Shown here in pieces: positions 1 to 39,262 of a stretch of DNA of 44,539 nucleotides. Source of the DNA: an uncultured bacterium (GTDB lineage: Bacteria > Cyanobacteriota > Cyanobacteriia > CAKZMO01); NCBI GenBank assembly GCA_964465285.1, contig CAYXJG010000002.1:1-44539 (forward strand). The letters are read 5' to 3'. The position numbers and the translations under genes were made by a program. Positions within the stretch are counted from its first letter, which is position 1. Every line of letters starts with the position of its first letter. Under the pieces are notes generated by a model. The model worked only from the letters and a program-made list of their open reading frames with translations. It had not been told where the DNA came from and made no database searches.

Positions 1-88
1 TCACGAAAAAATAGGGGTTTGGGGCGCGCTCCGCGCGCCCCAAACCCCTATTTTTTTCTTGTGAATTTGAGGACTTTGCCAAGTCGTG
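1..88 (+). mobile_element. MITE-like palindromic element, family A, copy A1 (left end cut by window edge)
   Basis: Perfect 19-bp hairpin arms ATAGGGGTTTGGGGCGCGC / GCGCGCCCCAAACCCCTAT, followed by right arm GTGAATTTGAGGACTTTGCCAAGTCGTG. Same layout as 7 other copies in the window. Confidence 0.75.
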
Positions 89-199
89 TTTAGTGTCGCG
101 GTATCGCCGCGCCGCGCCCTAAGATTTGGTTCAAATCTTGCCGTTTGGATGGGCTGCCTTGCCATAATTGAGGCAGATTTCTCAGTGAGGCGATCGCCC

Positions 200-1126
200 A
201 TGATTTTAGCCATTCCTCGATTCATTCCTACATCCTTTCGCACCAGCATCGCATCCACATTGGTTATCGTCGGTGTTGTCGGTGGCAGTGTGATGAGCTG
301 CGCCAGCAGTCCCCAGGACACATCAGAATCCGCTATTCTTGAGCAACGTGAAGTTGCCGCAGATAGTGCGGGAGCGAATCAAGTTCCTCAAAGTGCCGAG
401 TTGACAGCCCAGCGCGGAACCGCTGCGCCCCAGGCTCTCCCTCAGTTAGTCAAACGGGCAGAGCTGGTTCTTGAAGTTGATGCGGTCGATGATGCCATTG
501 ACCAAGCGGTGGCGATCGCCCGTCGCGTAGGAGGTGATGTGCTGCGCCTGCAAAACCAGACCCCACCCAATGAATCTATTCAGCACACGGCATTTCTGGA
601 ACTCCGCGTGCCCCAGGCGCAACTAGAGTCCGCCATCGACCAGCTCTCAGGTCTGGGTACGGTGGATCAGCAATACCTCACAGCGGAGGATGTATCTGCC
701 CAACTGGTAGACTACGAGGCACGGTTGCGGAACCTGAGGAAGGCGGAGGAAACGGTATTGGGCATCATGGATCGGTCGGGGGAAGTAAGCGACGTGCTGC
801 AAGTCGCCCAGGAACTCCGCAACATTCGCCAGTCCATTGAACAGATTGATGGACAGCTTGCTAATCTGCGAAACCAGGTCGCCTTTTCAACCCTTTCACT
901 CACTCTGGAAGCGAAAACGGCAGGTACCCCGAGCCAAACGACGGTTGTTACGCAGCTCGGCAACAGTTGGAAAGGGGCGACTCGCTCCGTGGCAGATTTC
1001 ACCGTTGACCTGATGCAAATTGGCATCTGGCTGCTGGTCTACAGCCCCTACTGGCTGGTGCTGGGAGGGGTGGGCTATGGTATCTATTGGCTAGTAAAGC
1101 GGGGCAAACGCCAATCCGCCTCTTAG
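200..1126 (+). CDS. DUF4349-like membrane/lipoprotein (start uncertain; ORF opens at 86 inside MITE A1)
   Basis: N-terminal hydrophobic signal ending ..GGSVMSCASS. Central coiled region LELRVPQAQLESAIDQL...LVDYEARLRNLRKAEETVLGIM. C-terminal TM helices IWLLVYSPYWLVLGGVGYGIYWLV. This architecture matches DUF4349 as I recall it. Confidence 0.55.
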   Translation: MILAIPRFIPTSFRTSIASTLVIVGVVGGSVMSCASSPQDTSESAILEQREVAADSAGANQVPQSAELTAQRGTAAPQALPQLVKRAELVLEVDAVDDAIDQAVAIARRVGGDVLRLQNQTPPNESIQHTAFLELRVPQAQLESAIDQLSGLGTVDQQYLTAEDVSAQLVDYEARLRNLRKAEETVLGIMDRSGEVSDVLQVAQELRNIRQSIEQIDGQLANLRNQVAFSTLSLTLEAKTAGTPSQTTVVTQLGNSWKGATRSVADFTVDLMQIGIWLLVYSPYWLVLGGVGYGIYWLVKRGKRQSAS

Positions 1127-1163
1127 AATCCCCTGAATCTTGGATGGCGAGTGTCGCTTAACT

Positions 1164-1268
1164 TATAGCAACGAAAGAGTTCGTGAAACCAAAACCATTT
1201 CAGGGAACCCGCGCTCCGCGCGGGTTCCCTGAAATGGTTTTGTCCTAACCAACCCTTTGGTTGCTATA
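1164..1268. mobile_element. MITE-like element, family C (TATAGCAAC...GTTGCTATA termini)
   Basis: Terminal inverted repeats TATAGCAAC / GTTGCTATA. Central perfect hairpin AAACCATTTCAGGGAACCCGCGC / GCGCGGGTTCCCTGAAATGGTTT. Abuts family B copy B1. Confidence 0.6.
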
Positions 1269-1372
1269 TACAGCGGTGTGCAAATTGGTTAAGCATACCC
1301 AAACCTGTTGAGTTGCGGCGCAGAGCGCCGCAACTCAACAAACTGTACTTAATGCGCTTGCACAGCGCTATA
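1267..1372 (+). mobile_element. MITE-like element, family B, copy B1
   Basis: GCGGTGTGCAAATTGG...GTTGAGTTGCGGCGCAGAGCGCCGCAACTCAAC...CTGTACTTAATGCGCTTGCACAGCGCTATA. Four copies in the window. Confidence 0.75.
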
Positions 1373-1444
1373 TTTAACCTGAGTTCAGGCTAAGCAGGTT
1401 CATGAAGGTTCATGAGTCATGGCTCTCATTCAAAATCGTGCTCC

Positions 1445-1542
1445 TTAGGGACTTGCAAGAAAATAAAGTACCCGGAAAAGAGCAGCGGGCGCAGCCCGCT
1501 GCTCTTTTCTTTCGGTATCTTTTTTAGCCGCAGATCCCTTAG
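1445..1542 (+). mobile_element. MITE-like element, family E, copy E1 (TTAGGGACTTGCAAG termini)
   Basis: TTAGGGACTTGCAAGAAAATAAAGTACCCGGAAAAGAGCAGCGGGCGCAGCCCGCTGCTCTTTTC...GCCGCAGATCCCTTAG. Copies also at 2940, 13138 and 39091. Confidence 0.75.
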
Positions 1543-1675
1543 TGTACCAGAGGAAATCAGCGTTGATTCTCCCGTGTAACAGACACACAGCACTAGCCAA
1601 ATCAATTGCGATGACGCCAGGGGGATGTCCTCATCCTGCTGTACTCTAAAGGCTGAAGTTGTGGGAACTATCTTC

Positions 1676-2656
1676 ATGAAGCGCCTCGTTTCGATTGCTG
1701 TCAGCCTGGTGATTCTTGCGTTCATCTACTGGAAGATTGACGTGCAGGGGTTGGTGGCGGTGTTTCGCAACTGCGATCGCCTCTGGATGGCAATCAGCCT
1801 TGGCATGGTAGTGCCCATCACCGCCATCACCGCATGGCGACTACAACAACTGGCTCCGCCTCAGGCAAGGTTGGGGTTTGGTGAAGCAAATCGGCTGATT
1901 CTCGCTGCTAGCAGCCTCAACATGGTGCTGCCGTCGAAAATGGGGGATATCGCCAAGGCGTATTTCATGCGCGATCGCGGACACCTCAGCGGCACCCTGG
2001 CGCTCTCACTGGTGGTGTTTGAGAAGACCTGCGACATGCTTTCACTGTTGCTGTGGTGCGTGTTTGGCCTCACCTTCTATAGGCCGAAAGACGGGTTGTT
2101 TTGGGTAATGACGGTCTGCATTTTTGCGGGGCTCGTGTTGGGGTCGCTGTTGTTGGTATCGCCCCGGTTCGCCAAAGGCTTCTTCAGTGTGGCAGAGGCG
2201 ATCGCCCCCAAAAAACTCCGCCCCAACCTTACAACTCTGCACCAATCTTGGCAGGAGATGCACGTTTACTTTTGGCGCGATCGCGATCAGCTCATGAAAA
2301 TTGCAGGCACCTCCATCGTCATCTGGTTTTTGCACCTGCTACAAATTTGGTTCTTCATCCTGGCACTAAACGCCTGGGCACCATTTTTAGCAAATTTGGC
2401 GCTATCTCCTCTGGCAATTTTGGCAGGACTCTTGCCGCTTACCTTTGCTGGAGTGGGCACCCGTGATGCTGCGTTAATTGTGTTTTACCAGCCTTTTTTC
2501 GATACACCCACAGCAGCGGCACTGGGGCTGCTCTGTACGTCTCGATATCTGATTCCGGCCATCGGTGGGTTACCTTTCTTGCAGCGGTATTTAACGGTAG
2601 TTAACGTGAGTTCGACAAGCACTCAGGACTTCGCTTCACATCCACCCCGCGAGTAA
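1676..2656 (+). CDS. Flippase-like / lysyl-phosphatidylglycerol-synthase TM-region family (UPF0104) membrane protein
   Basis: Polytopic membrane protein. Motif NMVLPSKMGDIAKAYFM after TM3 is typical of the LPG_synthase_TM family. Start chosen at MKRLVSIAVSL. Confidence 0.55.
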   Translation: MKRLVSIAVSLVILAFIYWKIDVQGLVAVFRNCDRLWMAISLGMVVPITAITAWRLQQLAPPQARLGFGEANRLILAASSLNMVLPSKMGDIAKAYFMRDRGHLSGTLALSLVVFEKTCDMLSLLLWCVFGLTFYRPKDGLFWVMTVCIFAGLVLGSLLLVSPRFAKGFFSVAEAIAPKKLRPNLTTLHQSWQEMHVYFWRDRDQLMKIAGTSIVIWFLHLLQIWFFILALNAWAPFLANLALSPLAILAGLLPLTFAGVGTRDAALIVFYQPFFDTPTAAALGLLCTSRYLIPAIGGLPFLQRYLTVVNVSSTSTQDFASHPPRE

Positions 2657-2831
2657 TACCAATTTTTGATTTTGGATTTTCGATTTTGGGTTGACAAACT
2701 CATAGTTGGCATAGGTTACAGGTTAGCTATCTGTAGTTCTACTTTCAAGAATTGGTGTAAACTGCGGGCTAGCTGTCAAGTCCGCTCAACGTGGACTCAA
2801 TCGCTCAAATCCTGATAGGACAGTACGTTAA

Positions 2832-2934
2832 CACGGCTTGGCAAGTTTCACGCAAAAATAGGGATTTGGCGCGCGCTCAGCGCGCGCCAAATCCCTATTT
2901 TTGCGTTGTGAATTTGAGAACTTTGCCAAGTCGT
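2832..2934 (+). mobile_element. MITE family A, copy A2
   Basis: CACGGCTTGGCAAGTTTCACGCAAAAATAGGGATTTGGCGCGCGC-TCA-GCGCGCGCCAAATCCCTATTTTTGCGTTGTGAATTTGAGAACTTTGCCAAGTCGT. Confidence 0.8.
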
Positions 2935-2939
2935 AACCA

Positions 2940-3037
2940 GTAAGGGATCTGCGGCTAAAGAAGATACCGGAAGAAAAGAGCAGCGGGCGCAGCCCGCTGC
3001 TCTTTTCCGGGTACTTCATTTTCTTGCAAGTCCCTAA
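2940..3037 (-). mobile_element. MITE family E, copy E2 (inverted relative to E1), 5 bp from A2
   Basis: Near-identical reverse complement of E1, including the GAGCAGCGGGCGCAGCCCGCTGCTC hairpin. Confidence 0.8.
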
Positions 3038-3271
3038 GTTCCTGTTCCCCTCTCAAAATCAGCGAACCGACCGTAATTAACTATCAAGCCCACAAATCTT
3101 GCGCTGCCTGCTGCGCGGGCAGCTCAGGGTCTTTGCAGGATCTTTAAGTTGGGGTTTAATTGTGCCGAGGTACTCATGTGTGCAATGGGGTTCCCAGAAC
3201 GAAATGTGTAATGGGATACAGTTTGCTGAAGGTAAACCTCTTTCAATAAACTCAACTTATCGTATCCAGAG

Positions 3272-4459
3272 GTGCAAACCACCAAAGCAATGCGCGATAT
3301 ACCAATCCTTCCAGAAGTAGACGCGACTGAAATGCCTGTGGCACCCAATGCCAAAGGTGTAATTCTTCAGTCTGTCACTAAAAAATATGGGCCTGTTGTC
3401 GCTGTTGAAAACGTTACCCTGGCTATCCCCGCAGGAACCTACTGCTGTTTGCTGGGGCCGAGCGGCTGCGGCAAAACCACCACCATGCGGATGATTGCAG
3501 GCCATGAGGAAATCACCACAGGGGATATTTTCATCGGGGATTTGCGGATTAATATGCTGCCCCCTGCCAAGCGCAACACCGCGATGATGTTTCAGAACTA
3601 CGCCCTCTTCCCCCACAAAACCGTGTGGCAAAACGTTGAATTTGGCCTCCGCATGGCAAAGGTGAAGGAACCCGAGTGCCGCACTCGCGTAGAAGAAATA
3701 CTCGACACCGTAGGATTGGGCACCTTCGCAAACCGTAAACCCCACATGCTCAGCGGGGGGCAGCAGCAGCGGGTCGCATTGGCTCGGGCACTGGTCACGC
3801 GCCCCCAGGTGCTGCTGCTGGATGAACCCCTCAGCGCCCTGGATGAGTCCCTGCGCGTTAAGACCCGCAGCGAACTCCGCAAGCTCCAGAAGCAGTTTGG
3901 TATGACGTTTATCCAGGTCACCCATAATCAGGATGAAGCCTATGCCCTCGCTGACCAGATTGTTGTGATGGATCACGGGCGCATTGACCAGGTGGGAACT
4001 CCACCGGAGATTTTTGCTAAGCCCATATCTAAATTCGTCGCCCAGTTCACCGGAGACAATAACATTTTTGAGGGCACGGTAATGAGTGCCGCCCAGGATG
4101 GTGATGATTGCCTCATTGAGATGGACGTCGATCCCCTGGGGACATTTCACTGTCGAGGGGAAGCGGTGCAGCCTGGGGTGCGTGCTGCGTGCAGTGTGAG
4201 GAGCGATCGCCTCTTCCTCAACTCTCTCCAGGCTCCCCAAGGTTCCATATTCGCATTCCCCCTGAACCACGTCACCGCTCGCATCACCGCCGTCGAGTTT
4301 ACAGGATACATCACCCGCGTGTCCCTGGCTCTGGAAAAAACCGGAACTGAGATTCTCTACAAAGCTCGCACCTCTGATTGGATGGAGCAGACCTTTGACG
4401 AGGGACAAGTTGTTCGAGTCGAGTGGCACCCCAAGGATTGCGTTTTCCTCGCTCACTGA
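3272..4459 (+). CDS. ABC transporter ATP-binding protein (PotA/FbpC-like, C-terminal TOBE-like domain); start may be 3290 or 3332
   Basis: Walker A GPSGCGKTT, signature LSGGQQQRVALARAL, Walker B LLLDEPLSALD, H-loop VTHNQDEA. Confidence 0.9.
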   Translation: MQTTKAMRDIPILPEVDATEMPVAPNAKGVILQSVTKKYGPVVAVENVTLAIPAGTYCCLLGPSGCGKTTTMRMIAGHEEITTGDIFIGDLRINMLPPAKRNTAMMFQNYALFPHKTVWQNVEFGLRMAKVKEPECRTRVEEILDTVGLGTFANRKPHMLSGGQQQRVALARALVTRPQVLLLDEPLSALDESLRVKTRSELRKLQKQFGMTFIQVTHNQDEAYALADQIVVMDHGRIDQVGTPPEIFAKPISKFVAQFTGDNNIFEGTVMSAAQDGDDCLIEMDVDPLGTFHCRGEAVQPGVRAACSVRSDRLFLNSLQAPQGSIFAFPLNHVTARITAVEFTGYITRVSLALEKTGTEILYKARTSDWMEQTFDEGQVVRVEWHPKDCVFLAH

Positions 4460-4468
4460 GGGAAGGCC

Positions 4469-4707: not shown

Positions 4708-6015
4708 ATGACCAAAATTTCTCGTCGTAATGTAATTCGCACCGGACTGGCAGCAGGGGCATTTCTTGCAACCACGCGCTGTGCCTCTGCTCCCGAAGGC
4801 ACTCCCAATAATCCTGCCCAGGGACCGGAAGTAACAACCAACTCCGCGAAGGATGTAACCCTGCGGCTTATCGGAACTGGAGTGTCTCAAATCAACGAAA
4901 TTCGGGACAAGGCACAGGAAGAACTGGGCTTTTCCATTGAGATGCGGGCACTTAGCACCGAAGAAAACAACCAGATTGCCATTACCCAGCCTGGGCAATA
5001 CGACATTTTTGATGGGGAATACTTCAGCCTGCCGCTGGTGGTTCCCTCTGGCAACCTCCAGCCTATCGACATTAGCAGAGTGAAAGACTGGGACAAGATT
5101 GTGTCCTTCTTCACCACTGGCAAATATAACGGAATGCCCGTCGAAACCTCCCAGGGAACCGCTCCCTACAGAGTTATGTACCTGACGGGGCCAGATTCTA
5201 CGGAGTTCTCGGAGACGCCGACCGATTTCGCCACCCTGATTCCCTTCCAGTACAACGCCGATACCCTGGGCGTTCGCCCTGATCTCGTCGGTCGCCCCAT
5301 CGAAAGCTGGGGGGAACTATTCAATGAAGAGTTTCGCGGCAAAACCTCCATTCTGGACATCCCCCAAATTGGCATGATGGATGCGGCGATGGTGGCTGAA
5401 GCCCTCGGCTTGATGACCTTCGGCGACAAAGGCAACATGACTCGGGCTGAGATTGATCAGTTAACTGACATTTTGAAGGAACAAAAGCGGGCAGGGCAGT
5501 TCCGCGCCTTCTGGAAGACCTTTGACGAGTCGGTCAACCTGATGGCATCTGGCGAGGTGGTGCTCCAGTCCATGTGGTCTCCTGCGGTGACTGCCGTGAA
5601 ATCTAAGGGAATGCAGTGCGTGTATGCACCATTGAAGGAAGGTTATCGCGGCTGGGGCGGCGGTATTGGCCTATCGAAGAATCTGGATGGTGTCGCCCGT
5701 GATGCGGCCTACGAATACATCAACTGGATGCTGGAAGGCTGGGTTGGCGCATTCCTGGGTCGTCAAGGTTACTACAGTGCGGCTCCCGAAAATGCCAAGA
5801 AATATATGTCCCAGGCAGAATGGGATTTCTGGTATGAAGGGAAGGAAGCGACTGAAGATATGGTCGATCCGTTCGGCAGTACCCTTGAGAAGGCGGGCAC
5901 CGTAAGGGATGGGGGGTCCTTTGAGGAACGCTTCGGCAACATTGTGGTGTGGAACTCCACGATGGAGGAGAACACTTACCTCGTCCAAAAGTGGAATGAG
6001 TTCATTGCCTCTTAG
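4708..6015 (+). CDS. ABC transporter periplasmic substrate-binding protein (PotD/PotF-like family 1) with twin-arginine signal
   Basis: N-terminus MTKISRRNVIRTGLAAGAFLATT matches a Tat motif (SRRxxI plus hydrophobic region). About 435 aa. Located between the ATPase and two permease genes. Confidence 0.8.
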   Translation: MTKISRRNVIRTGLAAGAFLATTRCASAPEGTPNNPAQGPEVTTNSAKDVTLRLIGTGVSQINEIRDKAQEELGFSIEMRALSTEENNQIAITQPGQYDIFDGEYFSLPLVVPSGNLQPIDISRVKDWDKIVSFFTTGKYNGMPVETSQGTAPYRVMYLTGPDSTEFSETPTDFATLIPFQYNADTLGVRPDLVGRPIESWGELFNEEFRGKTSILDIPQIGMMDAAMVAEALGLMTFGDKGNMTRAEIDQLTDILKEQKRAGQFRAFWKTFDESVNLMASGEVVLQSMWSPAVTAVKSKGMQCVYAPLKEGYRGWGGGIGLSKNLDGVARDAAYEYINWMLEGWVGAFLGRQGYYSAAPENAKKYMSQAEWDFWYEGKEATEDMVDPFGSTLEKAGTVRDGGSFEERFGNIVVWNSTMEENTYLVQKWNEFIAS

Positions 6016-6087
6016 GAACGAGACTTCAATAATGTGAACCAAATTTTAGTGGAGTGGAGCACCGCTCCACTAAGATACTCTATTAAG
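6011..6087. mobile_element. MITE family G, copy G1a (right end truncated); first bases overlap the stop codon of the binding-protein gene
   Basis: CTTAGGAACGAGACTTCAATAATGTGAACC...TTAGTGGAGTGGAGCACCGCTCCACTAA. The TAG of its terminus (6013-6015) is the CDS stop. Confidence 0.6.
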
Positions 6088-6097
6088 CCGCTTCACT

Positions 6098-6201
6098 CAG
6101 GACCGAGAATTAAATAACGTGAACCCAATTTTTATTAGGGCGGCGCGGCATCGCCGCGCCGCCCTAATAAAAAGGGATTTTATTTAATCTTCGTTCCTAA
6201 G
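6098..6201. mobile_element. MITE family G, copy G1b, flanked by 10-bp direct repeat CCGCTTCACT
   Basis: ..GAGAATTAAATAACGTGAACCC..TTAGGGCGGCGCGGCATCGCCGCGCCGCCCTAA..TTATTTAATCTTCGTTCCTAAG. Flanking direct repeats at 6088-6097 and 6202-6211. Confidence 0.75.
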
Positions 6202-6245
6202 CCGCTTCACTAAAAGGAACTGCTCAGTCTGCCTCAAAACCTATA

Positions 6246-7115: not shown

Positions 7116-7153
7116 CTTGTATCTCAGCGTTGAAGGAGCCAAGGCTTAATCTT

Positions 7154-7257
7154 TACGACTTGGCAAGTTTCACGCAAGGATAAGGGTTTGAGGCGCGCGG
7201 AGCGCGCCTCAAACCCTTATCCTTGCGTTGTGAATTTGAGAACTTTGCCAAGTCGTG
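7154..7257 (+). mobile_element. MITE family A, copy A3 (between the two permease genes)
   Basis: ACGACTTGGCAAGTTTCACGCAAGGATAAGGGTTTGAGGCGCGC-GGA-GCGCGCCTCAAACCCTTATCCTTGCGTTGTGAATTTGAGAACTTTGCCAAGTCGTG. Confidence 0.8.
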
Positions 7258-7318
7258 TAGTCTTGACACCTGCAAGACTAAGAACAGATTTTGAAGTTGT
7301 GACGAAGAGAGAGTAACG

Positions 7319-10762: not shown

Positions 10763-10955
10763 TATAGCAATACACAACTTGGCAAGTTTCGCGCAAAATG
10801 GGGGCTTGGGGCGCGCTCCGCGCGCGCCAAACCCTGTGAATCTGAGAACTTTGCCAAGTCGTAAACAATACGCACTTAGGTTAGGACATTGGAGGAGAGT
10901 ATATCCCCCGCGCAGCGGGGGATATACTTTTGAACCTAAGTCCGTAGGGCGATAG
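10763..10955 (-). mobile_element. MITE family D, copy D1, interrupted by family A copy A4
   Basis: Left arm TATAGCAATAC (10763-10773). It resumes at 10863 as AAACAATACGCACTTAGGTTAGG...TATATCCCCCGCGCAGCGGGGGATATA...GTAGGGCGATA. Reverse complement of D2 at 13174. Confidence 0.65.
10774..10862 (+). mobile_element. MITE family A, copy A4 (degenerate, partly deleted), nested inside D1
   Basis: ACAACTTGGCAAGTTTCGCGCAAAATGGGGGCTTGGGGCGCGCTCCGCGCGCGCCAAACCC..GAATCTGAGAACTTTGCCAAGTCGT. Flanked by aGCAATAC / aACAATAC. Confidence 0.65.
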
Positions 10956-11021
10956 AATTTGGCACCGCTGGCTACAGTTTTTTGACTCAAAATCTTCAAC
11001 AATGCGGCAAACTGATGAGAT

Positions 11022-11124
11022 ATAGCGGTGTGCAATTGGTTCAGCACACCCAAATGTGTTGAGTGGCGGCGCACTGCGCCGCCACTCAACACACTGTACT
11101 TAATGCGCTTGCACAGCGCTATAA
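11022..11124 (+). mobile_element. MITE family B, copy B2
   Basis: TATAGCGGTGTGCAATTGGTTCAGCACACCC..GTTGAGTGGCGGCGCACTGCGCCGCCACTCAAC..CTGTACTTAATGCGCTTGCACAGCGCTATA. Confidence 0.8.
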
Positions 11125-11146
11125 CTGCGAAAGAACTGAGATCGAC

Positions 11147-13137: not shown

Positions 13138-13343
13138 TTAGCGACCTGCAAGAAAATTGCAAGAAAATAAAGATATAGCCCTACGGGCTTAGGTTCAAGG
13201 GTGTATCCCCCGCGCAGCAGGGGATACACTCTCCTACAATGTCTTAACCTCAGTGCGTATTGCTATATTGGAGGAAAGGGACAGTGGGCTTAGACCGCTG
13301 CCCCTTTTCTCCAGTATCTTCGATTTAGCCGCAGATCCCTCAG
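13138..13343 (+). mobile_element. MITE family E, copy E3, interrupted by family D copy D2
   Basis: TTAGCGACCTGCAAGAAAA(TTGCAAGAAAA)TAAAGA, then the D2 insert, then TTGGAGGAAAGGGACAGTGGGCTTAGACCGCTGCCCCTTTTCTCC..GCCGCAGATCCCTCAG. Confidence 0.65.
13174..13267 (+). mobile_element. MITE family D, copy D2, nested in E3
   Basis: TATAGCCCTACGGGCTTAGGTTCAAGGGTGTATCCCCCGCGCAGCAGGGGATACACTCTCC..GTGCGTATTGCTATA. Confidence 0.7.
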
Positions 13344-13478
13344 AGTACAATTCTTCTGAATTTTGAGAGTTGTTAAGCTAGGGGACATTCTTCCGAAAAG
13401 CCAGGTTTTGGAGGGTGGGCGGCAGAGTGGCGCACCCGCTAAGGCAAGGCATCACTCAAGGATTAGGGATCACACGGG

Positions 13479-13577
13479 GCGGTGTGCAATTGGTTCAGCA
13501 CACCCACATATGTTGAGTGGCGGCGCAGAGCGCCGCCACTCAACACACTGTACTTAATGCGCTTGCACAACGCTATA
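13479..13577 (+). mobile_element. MITE family B, copy B3
   Basis: GCGGTGTGCAATTGGTTCAGCACACCC..GTTGAGTGGCGGCGCAGAGCGCCGCCACTCAAC..CTGTACTTAATGCGCTTGCACAACGCTATA. Confidence 0.8.
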
Positions 13578-13666
13578 AAAGTTAAACCTTTTGGTTCGAT
13601 TTTTTGGTTCGATTTTGGCTTCGGCGGTATACGTAGCGCTAGCCACAGGCGATTACCTGCCCCTGC

Positions 13667-20473: not shown

Positions 20474-20609
20474 AGATTTTACCTTTCGTGGATTCCTCAT
20501 CCCTTGATGTCATCAGCATAACAAAACATTATTCAGACCATTAGAGCCTGTCCAAAAACTCACTAGAGTTTTTGGAATCTATTCCCCTGATAGGTTTTTC
20601 GAATAAATG

Positions 20610-20715
20610 CTTAGGATCAAAGATTAAATAAAATCTAATGTTAGTGGAGCGGCGCGGCACAGCTGCGCCGCCCTACTAACACTGGGTTCAAGTTATTTAA
20701 TTCTCGTTCCTTAGG
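20610..20715. mobile_element. MITE family G, copy G2, flanked by direct repeat GAATAAATG(CTTAGGA)
   Basis: CTTAGGATCAAAGATTAAATAAAATC..TTAGTGGAGCGGCGCGGCACAGCTGCGCCGCCCTACTAA..AGTTATTTAATTCTCGTTCCTTAGG. Flanking repeats at 20601-20616 and 20716-20731. Confidence 0.7.
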
Positions 20716-20735
20716 GAATAAATGCTTAGGAAAGT

Positions 20736-20840
20736 TATAGCGGTGTTCAAATTGATTGAGCATACCCAGGATTTGTTGTGAAGCGGCGCAGAGCGCCGCT
20801 TCACAACAACCTGTACTTAACGCGCTTGCACAGCGCCATA
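20736..20840 (+). mobile_element. MITE family B, copy B4
   Basis: TATAGCGGTGTTCAAATTGATTGAGCATACCC..GTTGTGAAGCGGCGCAGAGCGCCGCTTCACAAC..CTGTACTTAACGCGCTTGCACAGCGCCATA. Confidence 0.8.
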
Positions 20841-20860
20841 ACAAACAAATATATCAGGAA

Positions 20861-20893
20861 CACATCGGGGGCACATCGGGGGCACATCAGGGG
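20861..20893. repeat. 11-bp tandem repeat x3 (CACATCGGGGG)
   Basis: CACATCGGGGG CACATCGGGGG CACATCAGGGG, directly abutting MITE H. Confidence 0.85.
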
Positions 20894-20986
20894 TATAGAA
20901 ATCCGAAATGGATTGTGAGAGTCGGGGCGGGCTCAGCCCGCCCCGACTCTCACAATCCATTTCACAAATCACTTAGGAACGCTATA
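20894..20986. mobile_element. MITE-like element, family H (TATAG...GCTATA termini)
   Basis: Long perfect hairpin AAATGGATTGTGAGAGTCGGGGCGGGC-TCA-GCCCGCCCCGACTCTCACAATCCATTT. Single copy in the window, with the same architecture as families C and D. Confidence 0.55.
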
Positions 20987-21046: not shown

Positions 21047-21150
21047 CACGACTGGGCAACGTTCTCAAATTCACAACGAAAAGATAAGAGTTTGGGGCGC
21101 GCTCAGCGCGCCCCAAACTCTTATCTTTTCGTGAAACTTGCCAAGTCGTG
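21047..21150 (-). mobile_element. MITE family A, copy A5 (inverted orientation)
   Basis: CACGACTGGGCAACGTTCTCAAATTCACAACGAAAAGATAAGAGTTTGGGGCGCGC-TCA-GCGCGCCCCAAACTCTTATCTTTTCGTGAAACTTGCCAAGTCGTG. Confidence 0.8.
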
Positions 21151-21360
21151 CCTTATATTTAGAATTAAGTCTTTAGAGCCAGCAGATAACCAGGCAGCTA
21201 TACTGCCACAGGCTACATTTTTAAATTGGGGAAATCCTCCGCTAAGCACAGGACTTCCTCAATTTAAAGATTAAGGTTATGACCTGGCAAAGTGTAGCCA
21301 CCATTCGCCTGGCAGTCCATTGGGATACAGACCTTCCAAGACAGGATATGCCCTAGATGG

Positions 21361-23434: not shown

Positions 23435-23556
23435 CAGCAATTCTCATTATGGAAATCTAGGGAGCAAAAAGGTCGCCTGAGGCGACCTTTTTGCTCCCTA
23501 GACTTGTACAAGTGAGCGCCTGTAGGGCGCGAAGCTTCCTAAAATGAGAATTGCTG
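23435..23556. mobile_element. MITE family F, copy F1, with perfect 9-bp target-site duplication GGTGAGGAT
   Basis: TIRs CAGCAATTCTCATT / AATGAGAATTGCTG. Internal hairpins CTAGGGAGCAAAAAGGTCGCC-TGA-GGCGACCTTTTTGCTCCCTAG and GCGCC-TGTAG-GGCGC. TSD at 23426-23434 and 23557-23565. Confidence 0.85.
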
Positions 23557-23697
23557 GGTGAGGATGTTGGAAATCTCCTCCTGGATTTCAGGTTACGTGG
23601 GTGTCCGGTGAGTAGAGATATGGTGGCAACACTGATAACCTAGAGGATGTCCAACTCATTCGGTCTTGTTCACGCAGTGATTTCCAAAATGGTGACT

Positions 23698-30394: not shown

Positions 30395-30496
30395 TGACTT
30401 GGCAAAGTTCTCAAATTTACAACGCAAGAATAAGGGTTTGGGGCGCGCGCCGCGCGCCCCAAACCCTTATTCTTGCGTGAAACTTGCCAAGTCGTA
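30395..30496 (-). mobile_element. MITE family A, copy A6, with 8-bp target-site duplication TGAAAACC
   Basis: TGACTTGGCAAAGTTCTCAAATTTACAACGCAAGAATAAGGGTTTGGGGCGCGC-GCC-GCGCGCCCCAAACCCTTATTCTTGCGTGAAACTTGCCAAGTCGTA. TSD at 30387-30394 and 30497-30504. Confidence 0.85.
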
Positions 30497-30550
30497 TGAA
30501 AACCCATTCCAATTTTGGGTCAACTCAGGGGGCGAGAACCGACGCCCAAT

Positions 30551-34764: not shown

Positions 34765-34860
34765 GAGGCATAATTCCTTCATCAGATTCATCAAACTGGA
34801 AAAGAATGACACACGAGGTCAGGACAACTATCAAGGGTTGACCCTGCCTGCGCTGTGTCG

Positions 34861-34892
34861 ATGATAGGGGCTGTACTAGGGTATAAGGTCAA
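34861..34892 (-). promoter_or_regulatory. MerR-type promoter P2 (TTGACC-N20-TATCAT) for the Tat-exported protein gene
   Basis: Minus strand reads CTTGACCTTATACCCTAGTACAGCCCCTATCAT. It begins 21 nt after the merR stop codon. The first 14 nt are identical to P1. Confidence 0.55.
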
Positions 34893-34912
34893 GCGATTTG
34901 GCAAAACTGTCG

Positions 34913-35308
34913 CTAATCGTTAGGGATGGTGTCTAACGCAATACAGGCGTTGTTGGGATTGGCAAATTGACACTGCTTCAGGATCGGCTGTAGCTCCCGT
35001 TGCAATGTTTGTAGTTGTTGGATTTGCTGTTCAATCTGGGCGAGCTTGTCTGCTAACCGCTCGTAGAGTGCTTGACAGGTGAGCGATCGCCCATCCTTAA
35101 GGGCAAGAATGTCTTTAATCTCATCTAAACTAAGTCCCAAAGACTTAGCCCGTGTAATAAAGGCAAGCCGATCCACGTCTTGTTGACTGAAGAGCCGATA
35201 TCCAGACTCTGTGCGCTGAGGTGGCGGAATTAACCCAATGCGTTCATAAAAGTAAAGGGTTTGCGGATTCAAGCCTAATTTTCGTGAAACTTCCCCAACC
35301 TGCAACAT
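34913..35308 (-). CDS. MerR-family transcriptional regulator, heavy-metal-sensing subgroup (three-Cys pattern)
   Basis: HTH MLQVGEVSRKLGLNPQTLYFYERIGL. Dimerisation helix. Cys at positions 78, 113 and 122, counted from ATG 35308. Confidence 0.85.
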   Translation of the reverse strand: MLQVGEVSRKLGLNPQTLYFYERIGLIPPPQRTESGYRLFSQQDVDRLAFITRAKSLGLSLDEIKDILALKDGRSLTCQALYERLADKLAQIEQQIQQLQTLQRELQPILKQCQFANPNNACIALDTIPND

Positions 35309-35339
35309 GGGCACCACTCCAATCCAACTTCATAAACCT

Positions 35340-35371
35340 ATGCTAAACCTTATACCAATTCATAAGGTCAA
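35340..35371 (-). promoter_or_regulatory. MerR-type promoter P3 (TTGACC-N20-TAGCAT) in front of merR itself
   Basis: Minus strand reads CTTGACCTTATGAATTGGTATAAGGTTTAGCAT. It contains the perfect inverted repeat ACCTTAT-N8-ATAAGGT. Confidence 0.6.
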
Positions 35372-35684
35372 GAGTGGCCGTTAAAGTTGAGTCAATCTGC
35401 CGGACATCTAATCGGGACAGGGAGAATCCTCACGAATCCCCCCTCCCCCCACGACCTGCAATGCCTGATGAGGTTTGTGGGAGCGCAGAGAAACCTCATC
35501 ATCTCAGGAAGTGGATTTCAAAATTCAGGAAATTCTAGATAACAAGCAATATTTCCAAATTTGTCACGAGTGTAGGAAGCGAGAACCCCGTGATTGGATG
35601 CATAATGATTGAATCTGCCAAGGTTGCGCCGAGAAGAATCATGGCGTTGTTTACTAAGCGCAAGCTATACGGGAGCTGAGTGTT

Positions 35685-35925
35685 ATGACTATCTCCTTGG
35701 ATTTACCATCAGAGTTAGAGAATGAGCTTTCTGCTGAGGCTTCCCAGCTTAAATTGCCTTTACCAGAGTATATTCTTCGCGTCCCCTCCTTTCGCCCTTT
35801 TCTACAAAACCCTCCCAAAACAGGGCTAGATTTTGTTGCCTACTGAGAAAGCGTTGGGGTGATCAACTCTCGACCCGATATCGCTAGCAGTCAGGAGCAC
35901 GCACGCAGGTTGCGCAATCAAGCTA
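35685..35925 (+). pseudogene. Small antitoxin-like gene with an in-frame TGA and a 3' end replaced by MITE A7
   Basis: MTISLDLPSELENELSAEASQLKLPLPEYILRV..PPKTGLDFVAY*ESVGVINSRPDIASSQEHARRLRNQAKH. The stop at 35844-35846 sits where relatives, as I recall them, have Trp (AYW). Confidence 0.4.
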
Positions 35926-36004
35926 AACACCAAAAAAATAGGGGTTTGCGGCGCGCTTAGCGCGCCGCAAACCCCTATTTTTTTGTGAAACTTGCCAAGT
36001 CGTG
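35926..36004 (-). mobile_element. MITE family A, copy A7 (one arm missing)
   Basis: AAAAATAGGGGTTTGCGGCGCGC-TTA-GCGCGCCGCAAACCCCTATTTTTTTGTGAAACTTGCCAAGTCGTG. Confidence 0.75.
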
Positions 36005-36243
36005 TTGGCAGACGGTTAAGCTCCACAGTGGTATGGCCTGGTAAATGTGGCCTTTGGTTGCAACAACGTCAATCGCCACTGCAACGCGATTGTGTGAACA
36101 AAATGTAATAAAAGCTTATCTTCCGATACCAGTTCCATCAAGTTATCCCTGCGATTATTACAAATCTTTGGGTTCTTTTAAGTTACTTTTCGAGAGAACC
36201 CGACTAAAGTCTAGGAAAAACACGTTTGATTTATCATTCGATT

Positions 36244-37683
36244 ATGGATCTTCTCTCCAATACCGTCGCTCTATCGCGCCTCCAGTTTGCGCTGACGGCG
36301 ATTTTTCACATGCTCTGGCCTGTACTCACGACAGGTATGGCTATCTACTTAGTCATCGTCGAAGGACTATGGCTCAAGACCCGTAATCCGACCTATTATC
36401 ACCACGCCCGCTTTTGGTCAAAGCTTTATGTCCTGAATTTTGGTATCGGTGTTGCCACAGGATTACCGATGGCGTTCCAGTTTGGTTTGAACTGGGCACC
36501 CTTCTCCGAATCTGTTGGCGATTTCTTTGGTACGATTCTTGGCTTTGAAGGCACCATGGCCTTTATGCTTGAAGCTAGCTTCCTCGGCATTATGCTATTT
36601 GGCTGGGATCGGGTGCCTGCTTTAGTTCACTACATTTCGACTATCCTGGTTGCCGTTGGTGCCAACTTGTCCACCTTCTGGATCTTGATGGCAAACTCCT
36701 GGCTTCAAACTCCTGCAGGTGGTGAGTTTGTGGATGGTAAATTTGTAGTTCATGACTTCTTCCAGGCGATGGCAAACCCGTTCATGGTGAACAGCTTCCT
36801 CCATATGTTCTTTGCCACGCTAGAGACTTCGCTCTTTGTGATTGGTGGCATTAGTGCCTGGTATCTGATAAACAAGCGCAATGAAGTATTTTTTGGGCGA
36901 TCGCTCAAAATTGTTGTAGGTGCTCTGGTTGTCATTGCCCCCCTGCAAATTTTCATCGGTCACCTCAGTGCTGAGCAGGTGTATCACTATCAACCGACGA
37001 AACTGGCCGCAATGGAAGCCCAGTGGGAAACCTTGCCTGCTGGACAAACTGCTGACTGGAGTTTGTTGGCACTTCCTAATGAGGAAACGGAGAGCAACAC
37101 TTGGGAAATCGTCGTTCCCAATGCGCTGGGCTATCTGCTGGAACTCAAGCCTAAGCTGACAGAACCTGTTCAGGGCCTCAAGTCCTGGCCGTCGGGCGAT
37201 CGCCCCCATATGGTCGGCCTGGTGTACTATTCTTTCCGCACCATGATTGGTATCGGCATGTTTTTTGCTGCACTAATGGCAATGACCGCTATCCAGTGGA
37301 TTCGTGGAAAGCTGGCTGCTCCTTATCTCAGTGAACAGCGATGGCTGCTGCGGAGCTGGATTTTTGCTGCCCCCCTGGGATATATCGCTGTAGAAACGGG
37401 TTGGATTGTGCGTTGTGTTGGCCGCCAACCCTGGACCGTCTATGGTGAGATACGCACGGTAGACGCCGCTTCAAATCTGCCCGCTGGTGAGATTTTGTTC
37501 TCCCTTTCCGGGCTAATGGCTATGTATAGCGTCTTCTTCATTGTCACCCTCTATTTTGGGAGCCGCATTATTCGCAATGGCCCTAATCTGAACCTGCCTC
37601 TGCCTCGGCAGAGCGGCGAAGTAGACCCCGCTCAGCACGAGCCAAATCGACGTCCACTAGAGAGTACGCAGCCTTCTAGTTGA
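36244..37683 (+). CDS. cydA: Cytochrome bd quinol oxidase subunit I
   Basis: MDLLSNTVALSRLQFALTAIFHMLWPVLTTGMAIYL...GWIVRCVGRQPWTVYG, the canonical CydA ends. Confidence 0.9.
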   Translation: MDLLSNTVALSRLQFALTAIFHMLWPVLTTGMAIYLVIVEGLWLKTRNPTYYHHARFWSKLYVLNFGIGVATGLPMAFQFGLNWAPFSESVGDFFGTILGFEGTMAFMLEASFLGIMLFGWDRVPALVHYISTILVAVGANLSTFWILMANSWLQTPAGGEFVDGKFVVHDFFQAMANPFMVNSFLHMFFATLETSLFVIGGISAWYLINKRNEVFFGRSLKIVVGALVVIAPLQIFIGHLSAEQVYHYQPTKLAAMEAQWETLPAGQTADWSLLALPNEETESNTWEIVVPNALGYLLELKPKLTEPVQGLKSWPSGDRPHMVGLVYYSFRTMIGIGMFFAALMAMTAIQWIRGKLAAPYLSEQRWLLRSWIFAAPLGYIAVETGWIVRCVGRQPWTVYGEIRTVDAASNLPAGEILFSLSGLMAMYSVFFIVTLYFGSRIIRNGPNLNLPLPRQSGEVDPAQHEPNRRPLESTQPSS

Positions 37684-37959
37684 GCGTAGAGCAATAATTA
37701 CATCAGGAGATGCGCTAAGTCATTCTGCATTTTTCGTAGGGCATACTCCAGAAGGATATGCTCTTACGAAAAATTGAAACCGCTGAAATTAAAGCCTTGC
37801 GTTAATTTTTGGGTGGGCAGTGCCCACTCTGCACGATTTTTGGGTGGGCAGCACTACCCGACTTAGGCCACCCTATGTTTAGGGGATTATCATCTAGCTA
37901 GAGGGTCTGTCCGTTAATCAGCCCCTTTACCATTCGCCTCCTCCCCCTTTCCCTTACCC

Positions 37960-38051
37960 GACTTGGCAAGCTTCATGAAAAAATAGGGGTTTAAGGGCGC
38001 GCGGTGCGCGCCCTTAAACCTTCATTCCTTCATAAACTTTGCCAAGTCGTG
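37960..38051 (+). mobile_element. MITE family A, copy A8, with 9-10-bp target-site duplication CCCTTACCC(G), inserted between cydA and cydB
   Basis: GACTTGGCAAGCTTCATGAAAAAATAGGGGTTTAAGGGCGCGC-GGT-GCGCGCCCTTAAACC..CATAAACTTTGCCAAGTCGTG. TSD at 37951-37959 and 38052-38060. Confidence 0.85.
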
Positions 38052-38083
38052 CCCTTACCCGAGTCATTCACGTCACTGCAATC

Positions 38084-39094
38084 ATGGAAACCCTTCAATA
38101 CTTTCTGCCCCAACTGTGGTTTGTTATCCTCGGCCTCTTTTTATTTCTCTATGTTTTACTCGATGGCTTTGATCTGGGTGTCGGCATTCTCTCTCTGACC
38201 TCTTCGACAGAGGAACGACGAGGCATTCTTATGACCAGTTTGGGGAATGTTTGGGACGCAAACGAAACCTGGTTAGTTCTTATGGGCGGGTCTTTATTCG
38301 GTGCATTTCCTCTAGCCTATGGAACGGTGCTAAATGCCCTGTATCTGCCAGCGGTCATCATGGTTGTCGGACTCATCTTTCGGGCGGTGTCTTTCGAGTT
38401 TCGGGAAAATGCAGATAACAAGCTCGTCTGGAACATCACATTTGGGGTCGGAAGTTTTTTGGCTGCGTTAGGGCAAGGCTTTGCCCTGGCTGCCATTTTT
38501 GAGGGCATTGCTGTAGATGAAGCAGGCCATTTCATTGGTGGTCCCTTTGACTGGCTGACCTGGCGCTCAGTAGTTGTAGCGCTGACATTGATTCAAGGAT
38601 ATGTGCTGATTGGCTCGGCATATCTTATCTTGAAGACGACAGGAGAATTACAGAAAACTCACTACAGGACTGCGAAACTTGCGGCGGTTACAACGTTTTT
38701 AGGAGCTGTGTTTATTACGGTAAGTGCTCCAATCTTTTCCGATGACGTGCGATCGCGCCTCTTCGACACGCCCCGAGTCTATCTTTTTGCCCTAATTCCA
38801 ATTTTTGGCACGATGTTGGTGATACTCCTACTCCGTAGCTTATTTCGAGAAGAGGAAACGACTCCCTTTGTCTGGACAGTACTCCTATTTACTTTATCTT
38901 TTGTCGGCCTTGGTTTCTTAATTTTTCCATATATTATTCCACCTAGCATCACCATTTATCAAGCGGCAGCCGACCCTGGCTCACTGGTCTTTATGGCGAT
39001 TTTTGTCGGCTTCCTCATTCCGATTCTGCTGGCATATACGCTCTATAACTATTTCGTGTTCCGAGGGAAAATTGCATCGGACGAATTCTATTAG
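38084..39094 (+). CDS. cydB: Cytochrome bd quinol oxidase subunit II
   Basis: METLQYFLPQLWFVILGLFLFLYVLLDGFDLGVGIL is the canonical CydB N-terminus. The ORF extension back to 38039 is MITE sequence. Confidence 0.9.
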   Translation: METLQYFLPQLWFVILGLFLFLYVLLDGFDLGVGILSLTSSTEERRGILMTSLGNVWDANETWLVLMGGSLFGAFPLAYGTVLNALYLPAVIMVVGLIFRAVSFEFRENADNKLVWNITFGVGSFLAALGQGFALAAIFEGIAVDEAGHFIGGPFDWLTWRSVVVALTLIQGYVLIGSAYLILKTTGELQKTHYRTAKLAAVTTFLGAVFITVSAPIFSDDVRSRLFDTPRVYLFALIPIFGTMLVILLLRSLFREEETTPFVWTVLLFTLSFVGLGFLIFPYIIPPSITIYQAAADPGSLVFMAIFVGFLIPILLAYTLYNYFVFRGKIASDEFY

Positions 39095-39157
39095 GGACTT
39101 GCAAGAAAATAAAGTACCAGAAGAGGGGCAAGCGAGCTTAGAATTGTTGTTTGGTGA
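39091..39157 (+). mobile_element. MITE family E, partial copy E4; its terminus overlaps the cydB stop codon
   Basis: TTAGGGACTTGCAAGAAAATAAAGTACCAGAAGAGGGG.., and the TAG at 39092-39094 is the cydB stop. Followed directly by F2. Confidence 0.6.
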
Positions 39158-39262
39158 CAGCAATTCTCATTTTGGGAAACTTCGCGTCCTATAGGCGCTC
39201 ACTTGTACAAATGTAGGCGACCTTTTTGTCCCCTACATTTTCATAATGAGATAGGAATTGCC
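39158..39262. mobile_element. MITE family F, copy F2 (inverted, internally deleted)
   Basis: CAGCAATTCTCATTTTGGGAAACTTCGCGTCCTATAGGCGCTCACTTGTACAAATGTAGGCGACCTTTTTGTCCCCTAC..CATAATGAGATAGGAATTGCC. Confidence 0.65.

Follow-up and report, generated by a model that had tools for sequence, protein, structure and literature searches.

In the genome of a filamentous cyanobacterium, Leptolyngbyaceae/Elainellales-like, the two stem arms of short palindromic transposable elements change together, and the loops between the arms occur in both orientations. Judging from the sequences, both features probably result from template switching during replication at the hairpins, an explanation that we favour over selection, if with no great certainty.

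The window, i.e. the whole stretch of 44,539 nucleotides that was analysed, is an entire contig from a draft genome of 5.45 Mb in 633 contigs. With BLAST, 25 copies or fragments of eight repeat families were located (A 8, B 4, D 4, E 3, F 2, G 2, C 1, H 1; Table 1), close to the about 26 copies in nine families announced in an earlier note on this DNA; the statement that they fill the intergenic space was somewhat generous, since the elements make up 5.6% of the window. Perfect hairpins of at least 9 bp number 23. Genome-wide, the eight families occupy about 2,800 loci, or 4.3% of the DNA, with 39–1,352 dispersed loci per family (1,352 for family A), each element being about 100 bp long and without coding capacity; only five DDE_Tnp_1 matches stand against this load. 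Elements of the family A kind are also the cause of assembly fragmentation, as 385 of 1,266 contig ends (30%) lie inside A copies, so that the youngest identical copies are under-sampled. An Rfam search with the repeat families gave no match, and a comparison with a plasmid collection gave no sequence relatives.

Table 1 Repeat copies and fragments in the window (stem, perfect stem length; loop, spacer between the arms)
Feature	Position	Strand	Remarks
Family A, A1	1..89	+	cut off by contig start; loop TCC; arm GGGGTTTGGGGCGCGC
Family A, A2	2831..2936	+	stem 28 bp; loop TCA; arm GGGATTTGGCGCGCGC
Family A, A3	7153..7258	+	stem 27 bp; loop GGA; arm AGGGTTTGAGGCGCGC
Family A, A4	10771..10864	+	right arm lacks 12 bases; loop TCC
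Family A, A5	21047..21151	-	stem 28 bp; loop TGA (family orientation); arm AGAGTTTGGGGCGCGC
Family A, A6	30396..30497	-	stem 28 bp
Family A, A7	35904..36005	-	bulge side truncated; stem 27 bp; arm GGGGTTTGCGGCGCGC
Family A, A8	37955..38053	-	divergent subfamily; stem 15 bp; in cydA-cydB gap
Family B, B1	1266..1376	+	stem TGTTGAGTTGCGGCGC; loop AGA
Family B, B2	11018..11126	+	
Family B, B3	13474..13580	+	
Family B, B4	20735..20843	+	stem TTGTTGTGAAGCGGCGC
Family C	1160..1272	.	stem 25 bp; loop TCC
Family D, D1	1440..1546	+	terminus TTAGGGACTTGCAAG; stem GAAAAGAGCAGCGGGC; loop GCA
Family D, D2	2936..3040	-	directly adjoins A2
Family D, fragment	13273..13347	.	
Family D, terminal fragment	39091..39138	.	
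Family E, short form	6008..6090	.	
Family E	6090..6205	+	stem 21 bp; loop ATC
Family E	20600..20720	-	mismatches in stem
Family F	10864..10956	+	stem 14 bp; loop GCA
Family F	13172..13264	-	
Family G	23450..23560	+	terminus CAGCAATTCTCATT; stem 23 bp
Family G	39155..39250	-	
Family H	20895..20985	.	stem 29 bp

Family A, and the other repeats with it, are genuine MITEs, that is, non-autonomous transposons derived from insertion sequences (IS). What had earlier been termed MITE-like thus has the terminal inverted repeats, target-site duplications, empty site and autonomous IS with shared ends of true MITEs. The termini of family A, (A/T)CACGACTTGGCAA...TTGCCAAGTCGTG(T/A), are conserved at both ends (643–738 A copies), and the remaining families have termini of their own. 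A 7-bp duplication was perfect in 161 of 819 family A flank pairs and one off in another 58; with flexible offsets, 251 perfect and 187 one-mismatch duplications were found among 727 (null 1.8 and 24.6), so that a duplication of about 7 bp with at most one mismatch is present in 438 of 727, against some 26 expected. For family G, identical 9-mers flank 59 of 113 elements. The site of copy A3, which is bordered by TAATCTT/TAGTCTT, is empty in three relatives (G001, G002 and G014) in which the flanking genes are syntenic, the intergenic gap measuring 203 bp here versus 50, 82 and 93 bp, respectively.

The earlier note had proposed a search for autonomous IS elements with the family termini. This was successful for family A and yielded a candidate for family G (C59:12887-14306, with a weak DDE match), whereas for families B–F and H no autonomous IS with matching ends was found in the genome. 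The partner of family A is a 1.5-kb IS701-like element on another contig (C154:2361-3860) with identical termini. Its open reading frame encodes a DDE transposase of 453 amino acids with IS701 as best match, which scores 123 bits against the IS701 model NF033540 (E = 1.5e-35, positions 5–360 of 363), under the cut-off of 150 bits, and 26.9 bits, above the cut-off, against PF01609. The IS701 family makes a short target duplication of about 4–5 bp (ISfinder), which the duplication of about 7 bp in family A does not match. Family A consists of both ends of this IS701-like element joined to an unrelated, GC-tipped hairpin of 27 bp. An identity as REP/REPIN elements mobilised by a RAYT was rejected, as target duplications are present and a PF01797 profile search of the genome, in which controls responded, found no Y1/RAYT transposase.

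When the eight A copies of the window are aligned, 95% of the cells pair and both sides change in 11 of 27 pairs; none of 500 shuffles reached the observed value and slid registers gave at most 2. All arms quoted in the earlier note were recovered with an exact complement, both those of family A (Table 1) and those of family B (GAGTTGCGGCGC, GAGTGGCGGCGC and GTGAAGCGGCGC). Its picture of perfect stems holds in the window, where six of the eight A copies are perfect over 24–28 bp, but not genome-wide, where this is true of 194 of 778 A copies over 27 bp and of 325 of 738 over 24 bp. This imperfection and the occurrence of the 3-nt loop in both orientations are two points that the earlier note lacked.

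Across 613 A copies and 27 pairs, double compensatory cells numbered 2,166 and single-change cells 962, with up to 183 symmetric variants per column in the inner stem and 0–13 in the terminal repeats. Events were counted as nearest-neighbour links in a minimum spanning network of 738 complete A copies, which for repeats of 100 bp only approximates their history. By this count, 278 both-arm changes from paired to paired stand against 449 single changes in the inner 27-bp stem, and 7 against 721 in the outer region. The inner stem thus exceeds the terminal repeats about 40-fold in complementary changes of both arms (278 vs 7), which agrees with the earlier claim that paired changes need hairpin selection or intrastrand conversion and do not follow from neutral decay. 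In mid-stem the ratio of paired to single events even reaches 223:197. Mismatches accumulating in the stem at the rate of the arms, which would have refuted the earlier note, were not found (3.7% per column in mid-stem vs 5.9% in the outer arms).

The concerted events have a spectrum like that of point mutations. Exactly one concerted column was involved in 192 of 232 links, the events are spread evenly over columns, and 28 of 98 links at distance 2 consist of one compensated pair. Transitions account for 59% of concerted events and 64–65% of single changes, and the rank distribution of derived alleles is the same for both. Two thirds of the concerted events (67%) are private to one copy, and among such copy-private events they are about as frequent as single changes. 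There are clear subfamilies of family A with shared paired variants, all four allele combinations occur in 67 of 78 pairs of stem columns, and single-arm changes are found more often where stem columns are most polymorphic. In the five GC columns beside the loop, symmetric variants are nearly absent despite many single changes. Concerted events are enriched in stems relative to non-stem pseudo-pairs in families B, C, D, E and F as well, and their ratio climbs as stems become longer, from roughly 0.12 (16 bp) to 0.6 (27 bp). With outer-arm changes as an age proxy, which is noisy and truncated by the choice of copies, symmetric variants stay flat (0.081 to 0.091 per column) whereas mismatches do rise.

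The 3-nt loop of family A is found in its two orientations at a ratio of about 1:1, both for the common loops (TCC 129 and GGA 118; TGA 60 and TCA 59) and for rarer ones (CTC 23 and GAG 18; GAA 20 and TTC 16). Both orientations are present inside each stem haplotype, nearly all combinations of loops and stem haplotypes occur, and even copies that differ least have their loops oriented at random. With families B, C, D, E, F, G and H, in which both orientations were also seen, this applies to all eight families. The asymmetric bulge of family A is present once in 744 elements, absent from 19 and present twice in one, which indicates that the loop flips do not stem from crossing over between copies. 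Deletions of the centre at TTTG direct repeats recur on many different stem haplotypes and the family A consensus, as single-stranded DNA, has a predicted fold of -52 kcal/mol (z = -14); together we count these as pointing to hairpin formation in vivo. The independently assembled genome G001 of the same genus shares the architecture, has paired variants too and shows some flips. It also contains a subfamily with inherited stem mismatches and a skewed loop orientation (AAC 9, GTT 2), so that symmetrisation is not universal.

The hairpins of families A, C and E fit the sequence pattern of putative bidirectional terminators (GC-rich hairpin followed by a T-run) on both strands. A structured RNA under purifying selection was considered and rejected, since there is neither an Rfam match nor an enrichment of G.T wobbles: the ratio of G.T to A.C mismatches in the stem (189:154) is no more skewed than that of the terminal repeats (320:216).

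When replication switches template between imperfect inverted repeats, the arms are made alike and the spacer is inverted (PMC8604942; PMC8794818); in E. coli, template switching is a well-established source of mutations (PMC7202029). We favour it because both hallmarks of this known signature, one-step arm homogenisation and loop inversion, are found in family A. A point mutation would first strike one arm of the inner hairpin, after which the replication machinery of the host, erring at the folded hairpin, would recopy one arm from the other, with the nascent strand either folding back on itself or jumping to the opposite strand. In this single step the mismatch would be erased or mirrored onto the partner arm, and the loop would sometimes be inverted. 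The process would be limited to the part that folds without interruption, the asymmetric bulge of 11–15 nt being its putative outward bound. The GC tip beside the loop appears to be spared and would act as annealing primer, but sequence constraint on transposition-competent lineages explains the near-absence of symmetric variants there equally well. All families would be affected whatever their transposase, longer stems more strongly, and no selection on any individual copy would be needed. The flat course of symmetric variants along the age proxy is more easily reconciled with conversion at birth, or with inheritance, than with steady conversion in situ.

Selection on the hairpin, which we consider unlikely, would imply that an intact inner stem is needed for efficient transposition, for instance if the fold joins the terminal repeats, or else that copies are retained by the host because they serve as bidirectional terminators or RNA elements; a copy with mismatches would be a dead end, and stepwise compensatory double mutants would found new sublineages. 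Subfamilies with shared paired variants are in line with this, as are the terminator pattern of A, C and E, the full frequency of symmetric variants even in the 'youngest' class and their scarcity in the two parts whose sequence would be constrained, the terminal repeats and the GC tip. Compensatory changes in REPINs and bcr1 have been read in the same way. However, a two-hit route predicts paired changes at about 1% of single ones, far from the observed 278:449 and, in mid-stem, 223:197, and of the paired events, two thirds are confined to a single copy. Neither the loop inversion at about 1:1 within haplotypes and across eight families nor the lack of excess G.T wobbles is what such selection predicts, and it would need to act on about 2,800 loci. 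Given the loop flips, the absence of G.T enrichment, the point-mutation-like spectrum and the like behaviour of eight families with different transposases, conversion is preferred over hairpin selection. Conversion could also be ectopic, with short hairpin-centred tracts copying both arms from a donor among the roughly 1,000 copies, and with the palindromic inner part letting the donor align either way and so flip the loop. The four allele combinations in 67 of 78 column pairs and the nearly complete set of pairings between loops and stem haplotypes would fit, and tract ends within the stem predict the surplus of single-arm changes at the most polymorphic columns. Still, we hold this to be improbable, as the concerted events, mostly confined to one column (192 of 232 links), are distributed evenly over the columns and resemble point mutations in their spectrum, common alleles are favoured among their derived alleles no more than among those of single-arm changes, crossing-over products with no or two bulges are rare (19 and 1 of 764), and the process is unable to create the first symmetric variant.

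Regeneration coupled to transposition is quite doubtful. In this case a new copy would arise via a folded single-strand or hairpin intermediate, its mismatches being resolved and its loop orientation randomised at birth and not later, in accordance with mismatches but not symmetric variants rising with the age proxy, and with loops that are oriented at random even in copies that differ least. This age proxy is weak, however, and we know of no whole-element hairpin intermediates for DDE transposases that make target duplications. Moreover, the eight families behave alike despite different ends and duplications of 7 and 9 bp, which imply different transposases and argue for a host process. It is likewise rather improbable that a dedicated, element-linked process, rather than generic replication errors, resets arm symmetry and loop orientation. 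This might take the form of hairpin-copy transposition, with new copies made from a folded single-strand intermediate, a mode not known to us for DDE IS families, or of bidirectional terminators domesticated throughout the genome, whose hairpins a structure-specific repair activity keeps perfect. Finally, short-read de Bruijn assembly could scramble loop orientation and falsely symmetrise the arms of a palindromic high-copy repeat; the assembly is a draft of 633 contigs with 30% of contig ends in A copies, and Illumina sequencing is prone to errors in GC-rich inverted repeats. We regard an artefact as very unlikely indeed, since k-mers of at least 33, as inferred from element geometry, reach across the loop and one entire arm to include the first asymmetric base, which means that the reads fix loop orientation and each arm. 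In addition, some 960 single-arm mismatches are preserved, the same flips occur in families with stems of 16–20 bp, and the separately assembled G001 agrees in architecture and in having paired variants, with some flips as well.

To our knowledge, neither loop flip-flop nor a quantified co-change of arms has been described for cyanobacterial MITEs. Like the elements studied here, these share terminal inverted repeats with an IS and have flanking direct repeats; Nezha of Anabaena/Nostoc and the Microcystis groups are about 100–170 bp long, with very stable predicted hairpins and high intergenic copy numbers (PMC3184786). The present genome differs by its very high load (about 2,800 loci, 4.3% of the genome) and by a distant IS701-like partner for family A that nevertheless goes with a duplication of about 7 bp. 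Plastids descend from cyanobacteria. In chloroplasts, hairpins with inverted repeats of 11–24 bp undergo recurrent, homoplasious inversions with 'flip-flop orientations' (Kim and Lee 2005, as summarised in PMC12928735); these are single-copy non-coding hairpins compared between species, whereas here multi-copy mobile elements with 3-nt loops vary within one genome. REPINs are palindromic non-autonomous elements of about 100 bp in which compensatory changes on both sides of the hairpin spacer are 'common' (PMC3116915), but they make no target duplication and need a Y1 (RAYT) transposase, in contrast to the duplications and DDE partner found here in the absence of Y1. The dispersed bcr1 repeat of the Bacillus cereus group (about 155 bp) has 5-bp direct repeats and compensatory base-pair changes (PMC3184786); it is transcribed and its covariation is read at the RNA level, whereas the present hairpins have no wobble excess and no sign of an RNA role. 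Template switching elsewhere concerns individual hot spots in E. coli and yeast, or has been deduced from the phylogenies of RNA genes and coding genes, whereas in this one genome its proposed targets are thousands of paralogous hairpins, with a putative dependence on replication.

The origin of long perfect stems, and the way in which 'compensatory' change keeps them paired, have long posed a problem. A one-step answer has been put forward in the form of template switching, for which the evidence on stem maintenance is called circumstantial by its authors (PMC8794818). This genome is a natural experiment on the perfection of DNA hairpins, with thousands of paralogous hairpins of 14–29 bp and with built-in controls in the unpaired terminal repeats, the orientation-fixing asymmetric bulge and the families of differing stem length. 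In it, point mutation can serve as a direct yardstick for the rates at which changes are mirrored, loops inverted and centres deleted. It also holds a warning, as covariation in repeat hairpins is usually read as proof that an RNA or DNA structure is functional, yet mutation alone can bring it about.

The draft genome that holds the window comprises 5.45 Mb in 633 contigs, one of which (C2, 44.5 kb) is the window in its entirety. The gene content is that of ordinary chromosomal DNA, including MetH, RecG and a UvrD/PcrA-type helicase, and the closest relatives of the RecG protein occur in Leptolyngbyaceae, Elainellales and Oculatellaceae genomes at no more than 82% amino-acid identity. The window gave no matches in Rfam or tRNA scans. 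The octamer GCGATCGC, repeatedly present in the repeat listing of the window, corresponds to HIP1, a cyanobacterial palindrome. Searched by BLAST with a single reference for each family, the window yielded 25 copies or fragments of eight palindromic repeat families (A–H), together 2,481 bp, and a scan found 23 perfect hairpins, with stems of 24–28 bp in six of eight A copies and of 14–29 bp in the other families. Genome-wide, the same references gave the numbers of loci listed below, which add up to 234,840 bp (4.3% of the total DNA). As many as 385 of the 1,266 contig ends lie within an A copy, from which it follows that A-type elements fragment the assembly.

Repeat families in the genome: loci, loop orientations, and paired versus single events in the stem
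Family	Loci	Loop orientations	Paired vs single
A	1,352	TCC 129 / GGA 118; TGA 60 / TCA 59; CTC 23 / GAG 18; GAA 20 / TTC 16; GGC 14 / GCC 14	
B	312	AGA 53 / TCT 41	26 vs 127
C	39		10 vs 19
D	421	TGC 96 / GCA 71	13 vs 40
E	275	ATC 22 / GAT 21	9 vs 33
F	74	TGC 23 / GCA 14	6 vs 49
G	289	TGA 74 / TCA 24	
H	53	GCA 8 / TGC 7	

The repeats are classical MITEs and not REPINs. Family A has conserved termini, (A/T)CACGACTTGGCAA...TTGCCAAGTCGTG(T/A), outside which the sequence is random. The 7-bp flanks are identical in 161 of 819 end pairs and differ once in another 58, the remainder being random-looking; if the boundary is slid by 1–2 bases, a duplication with at most one mismatch is present in 438 of 727 copies, as compared to about 26 expected from shuffled flank pairings. 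The intergenic gap that carries copy A3 measures 203 bp here; in three related genomes the same genes lie 50, 82 and 93 bp apart, and the site is thus empty. A search of the genome with Pfam models led to a 1.5-kb element on contig C154 encoding a 453-aa DDE protein, for which the best model is IS701 (123 bits, under the curated 150). The asymmetric bulge of family A is subterminal sequence of the right end of this IS, and the hairpin core is unrelated to it. This true partner was reached solely by the Pfam search, not by the screen for A termini 0.4–4 kb apart, in which the candidate autonomous elements (C306 and C346, with duplication-like flanks, and C133) proved to be ordinary genes flanked by two MITEs. 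In family G, 59 of 113 copies are flanked by 9-bp duplications, and a candidate partner of 1.4 kb lies on contig C59. A Y1/RAYT transposase was not found in the genome, which together with the target duplications rules out REPIN/RAYT membership. Plasmid BLAST gave no related sequence. Only five DDE_Tnp_1 matches were obtained genome-wide for some 2,800 MITE loci, an extreme MITE-to-IS ratio, although short-read assembly may collapse IS copies.

The families often adjoin or nest. In one cluster, 38 interrupted A copies have G-family sequence in common inside the element, the G element being inserted in the AT-rich left arm. Examples are tabulated together with other repeats.

Positions of the IS element, nested or adjoining copies, and other repeats
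Feature	Location	Detail
IS partner of family A	C154:2361-3860	start CACGACTTGGCAAAGTTC, end GAGAACTTTGCCAAGTCGTG
G within A	C253:4811	
G within A	C91:2874	
G within A	C31, near 22177, minus strand	
G within A, example of duplication		CAAAAATAG
A2/D2, adjoining or nested	window 2831-3040	
A4/F1, adjoining or nested	window 10771-10956	
Tandem repeat between family B copy B4 and family H hairpin	window 20866-20893	GGGGGCACATC
cydA-cydB gap, A8 and other repeats	window 37684-38083	includes duplicated TTTTTGGGTGGGCAG motif (first sequence reading)
Short tandem array	window 43093-43152	15-bp unit GGGCACAAATGATTG x4
Short tandem array	window 44490-44539	7-bp unit GGAGTGG(G), runs off contig end

All sequences quoted in an earlier note on this DNA are present in the window, and its claim that both arms of the family A hairpins change together holds: in the alignment of the eight copies, 11 of 27 pairs are altered on both sides with 95% of cells paired, which none of 500 shuffles matched and for which slid registers give at most 2. 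Among 613 full-length copies genome-wide, the 27 stem pairs yield 13,277 consensus cells, 2,166 double compensatory ones, 723 pair-breaking single changes, 239 G.T pairs and 146 non-compensatory doubles. When left arms were aligned to reverse-complemented right arms in 738 complete copies, symmetric and one-arm changes per column numbered 0–13 and 15–88 in the terminal repeats, and up to 183 and mostly 10–41 in the inner stem; the five GC columns beside the loop had almost no symmetric variants and many one-arm changes. Stems do decay, since only 194 of 778 copies retain 27-bp perfection; mismatches per column amount to about 3.7% in the mid-stem versus 5.9% in the outer arms of the 738 copies. 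Private variants per column are unusable as a clock, because each alternative base recurs among these copies.

Events rather than cells were counted on a minimum spanning network of A copies, with links of at most eight differences. The inner stem gave 278 both-arm, paired-to-paired events and 449 single ones; for the outer region, which has about as many columns, the figures are 7 and 721. Paired events stand against new mismatches as 223 to 197 in 16 mid-stem columns and as 6 to 420 in outer columns, whereas a two-hit route would give paired events at about 1% of the number of single changes. Such counts show that concerted change is real and specific to the foldable part. It affects exactly one column in 192 links, two in 34 and three in 6; of 98 distance-two links, 28 consist of one compensated pair. 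The events are distributed across all mid-stem columns, two thirds are private to one copy, 59% are transitions (64–65% for single changes), and the derived alleles are those reached by single changes. Concerted change thus resembles a point mutation that is mirrored in the opposite arm. Families B–F show a similar but weaker stem enrichment of paired events, with both-arm fractions of 0–5% in non-stem pseudo-pairs, and the paired to single ratio climbs roughly with stem length.

Since the bulge fixes the orientation of every A copy, that of its loop can be read, and the two orientations are about equally common. Each stem haplotype includes both, as do the eight window copies, and flips occur in every other family as well. 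Crossover of flipped copies is expected to yield elements with no bulge or two; such elements are rare (19 and 1, against 744 normal ones), which indicates that flips are internal to the element. Pairs of copies with identical arms give little information on the loop mutation rate, as most of them are consensus-like copies of separate lineages that have not mutated.

Variability in family A is greatest in the central 19 bases (133 variants in 240 copies with the same flanking stem); among the variants are centre deletions and GCGC-to-GTGC/GCAC changes, the latter very common genome-wide in the GCGCGC core. The sequence pattern suggests a cytosine-deamination hot spot, possibly caused by m5C methylation at GCGC. 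Hairpin-less short derivatives recur on many stem haplotypes; their junctions lie at TTTG direct repeats, as slippage across a folded hairpin would give. Short forms of 52, 65–66 and 91 bp reflect recurrent loss of either one arm or the hairpin centre; in the 52-bp class, the TTTG junction occurs on at least 11 stem haplotypes, and one 66-bp form was apparently amplified after deletion, to about ten near-identical copies.

Template switching of DNA polymerase between imperfect inverted repeats leaves homogenised arms and inverted spacers as its signature (PMC8604942), is experimentally established for quasi-palindromes in E. coli (PMC7202029), and, for RNA hairpins, was proposed to produce compensatory changes and loop inversions in one step (PMC8794818). 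Chloroplast DNA hairpins likewise undergo recurrent loop flip-flop (Kim and Lee 2005, cited in PMC12928735). We consider it somewhat probable that template switching at the level of the host explains both arm symmetry and loop flips. The process would be active in eight families that differ in their ends and in the length of the duplication, would be more potent on longer stems, would halt at the bulge, and would seemingly spare the loop-proximal GC tip, which may serve as fold-back primer. As single-stranded DNA, the family A consensus has a predicted fold of −52 kcal/mol (z = −14). Mismatches of the G.T and A.C type number 189:154 in the stem and 320:216 in the terminal repeats, so there is no strand-specific tolerance of G.T.

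Selection on an intact hairpin, either because it aids mobility or because it serves as a bidirectional terminator (a pattern that the A, C and E hairpins match), would account for subfamilies and constrained zones; it leaves unexplained the loop flips and the fact that private events are paired or single in near 1:1 proportion, and we regard it as unlikely. Ectopic conversion between copies, which could shuffle stems and flip loops, we also regard as unlikely: all four allele combinations of stem columns are common, yet concerted events are single-column, evenly spread and mutation-like. Less probable still is a reset of symmetry coupled to transposition. In an underpowered regression restricted to copies selected for good termini, symmetric variants are flat against a weak age proxy and mismatches rise, which would fit such a reset, but unrelated transposases would all have to share it. 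That the assembly created the pattern is very improbable, given that a k-mer of at least 33 joins the loop to the first asymmetric base, that some 960 stem mismatches were retained, that short-stem families behave like long-stem ones, and that a congener assembled independently (G001) has this architecture too, along with paired variants and some flips.

Loop ratios in this congener are skewed. Its loci L099–L118 form A subfamilies of their own, with stems AAGGGTTTGGGG and AAGTGATTGAGG, and one subfamily has a stable, inherited arm asymmetry (GAGGAACC vs AAGAAATA), which implies that mismatched stems can propagate there. Coding DNA of same-genus genomes is only about 75–77% identical, too distant for comparing copies in situ. 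No same-species sequence was found by exact-protein look-up or by scanning metagenomes for a family A 22-mer, and no paralogous flanks were found in the genome.

Compensatory changes in repeat hairpins were described before for REPINs (PMC3116915) and bcr1 (PMC3184786), and cyanobacterial MITEs and the proposed template-switch mechanism are likewise known. The apparent novelty lies in the families themselves, in bacterial MITE loops that flip and flop near-equally, and in the quantitative argument for mutation, not selection, as the source of covariation. The genome is a natural experiment on the maintenance of perfect DNA hairpins.
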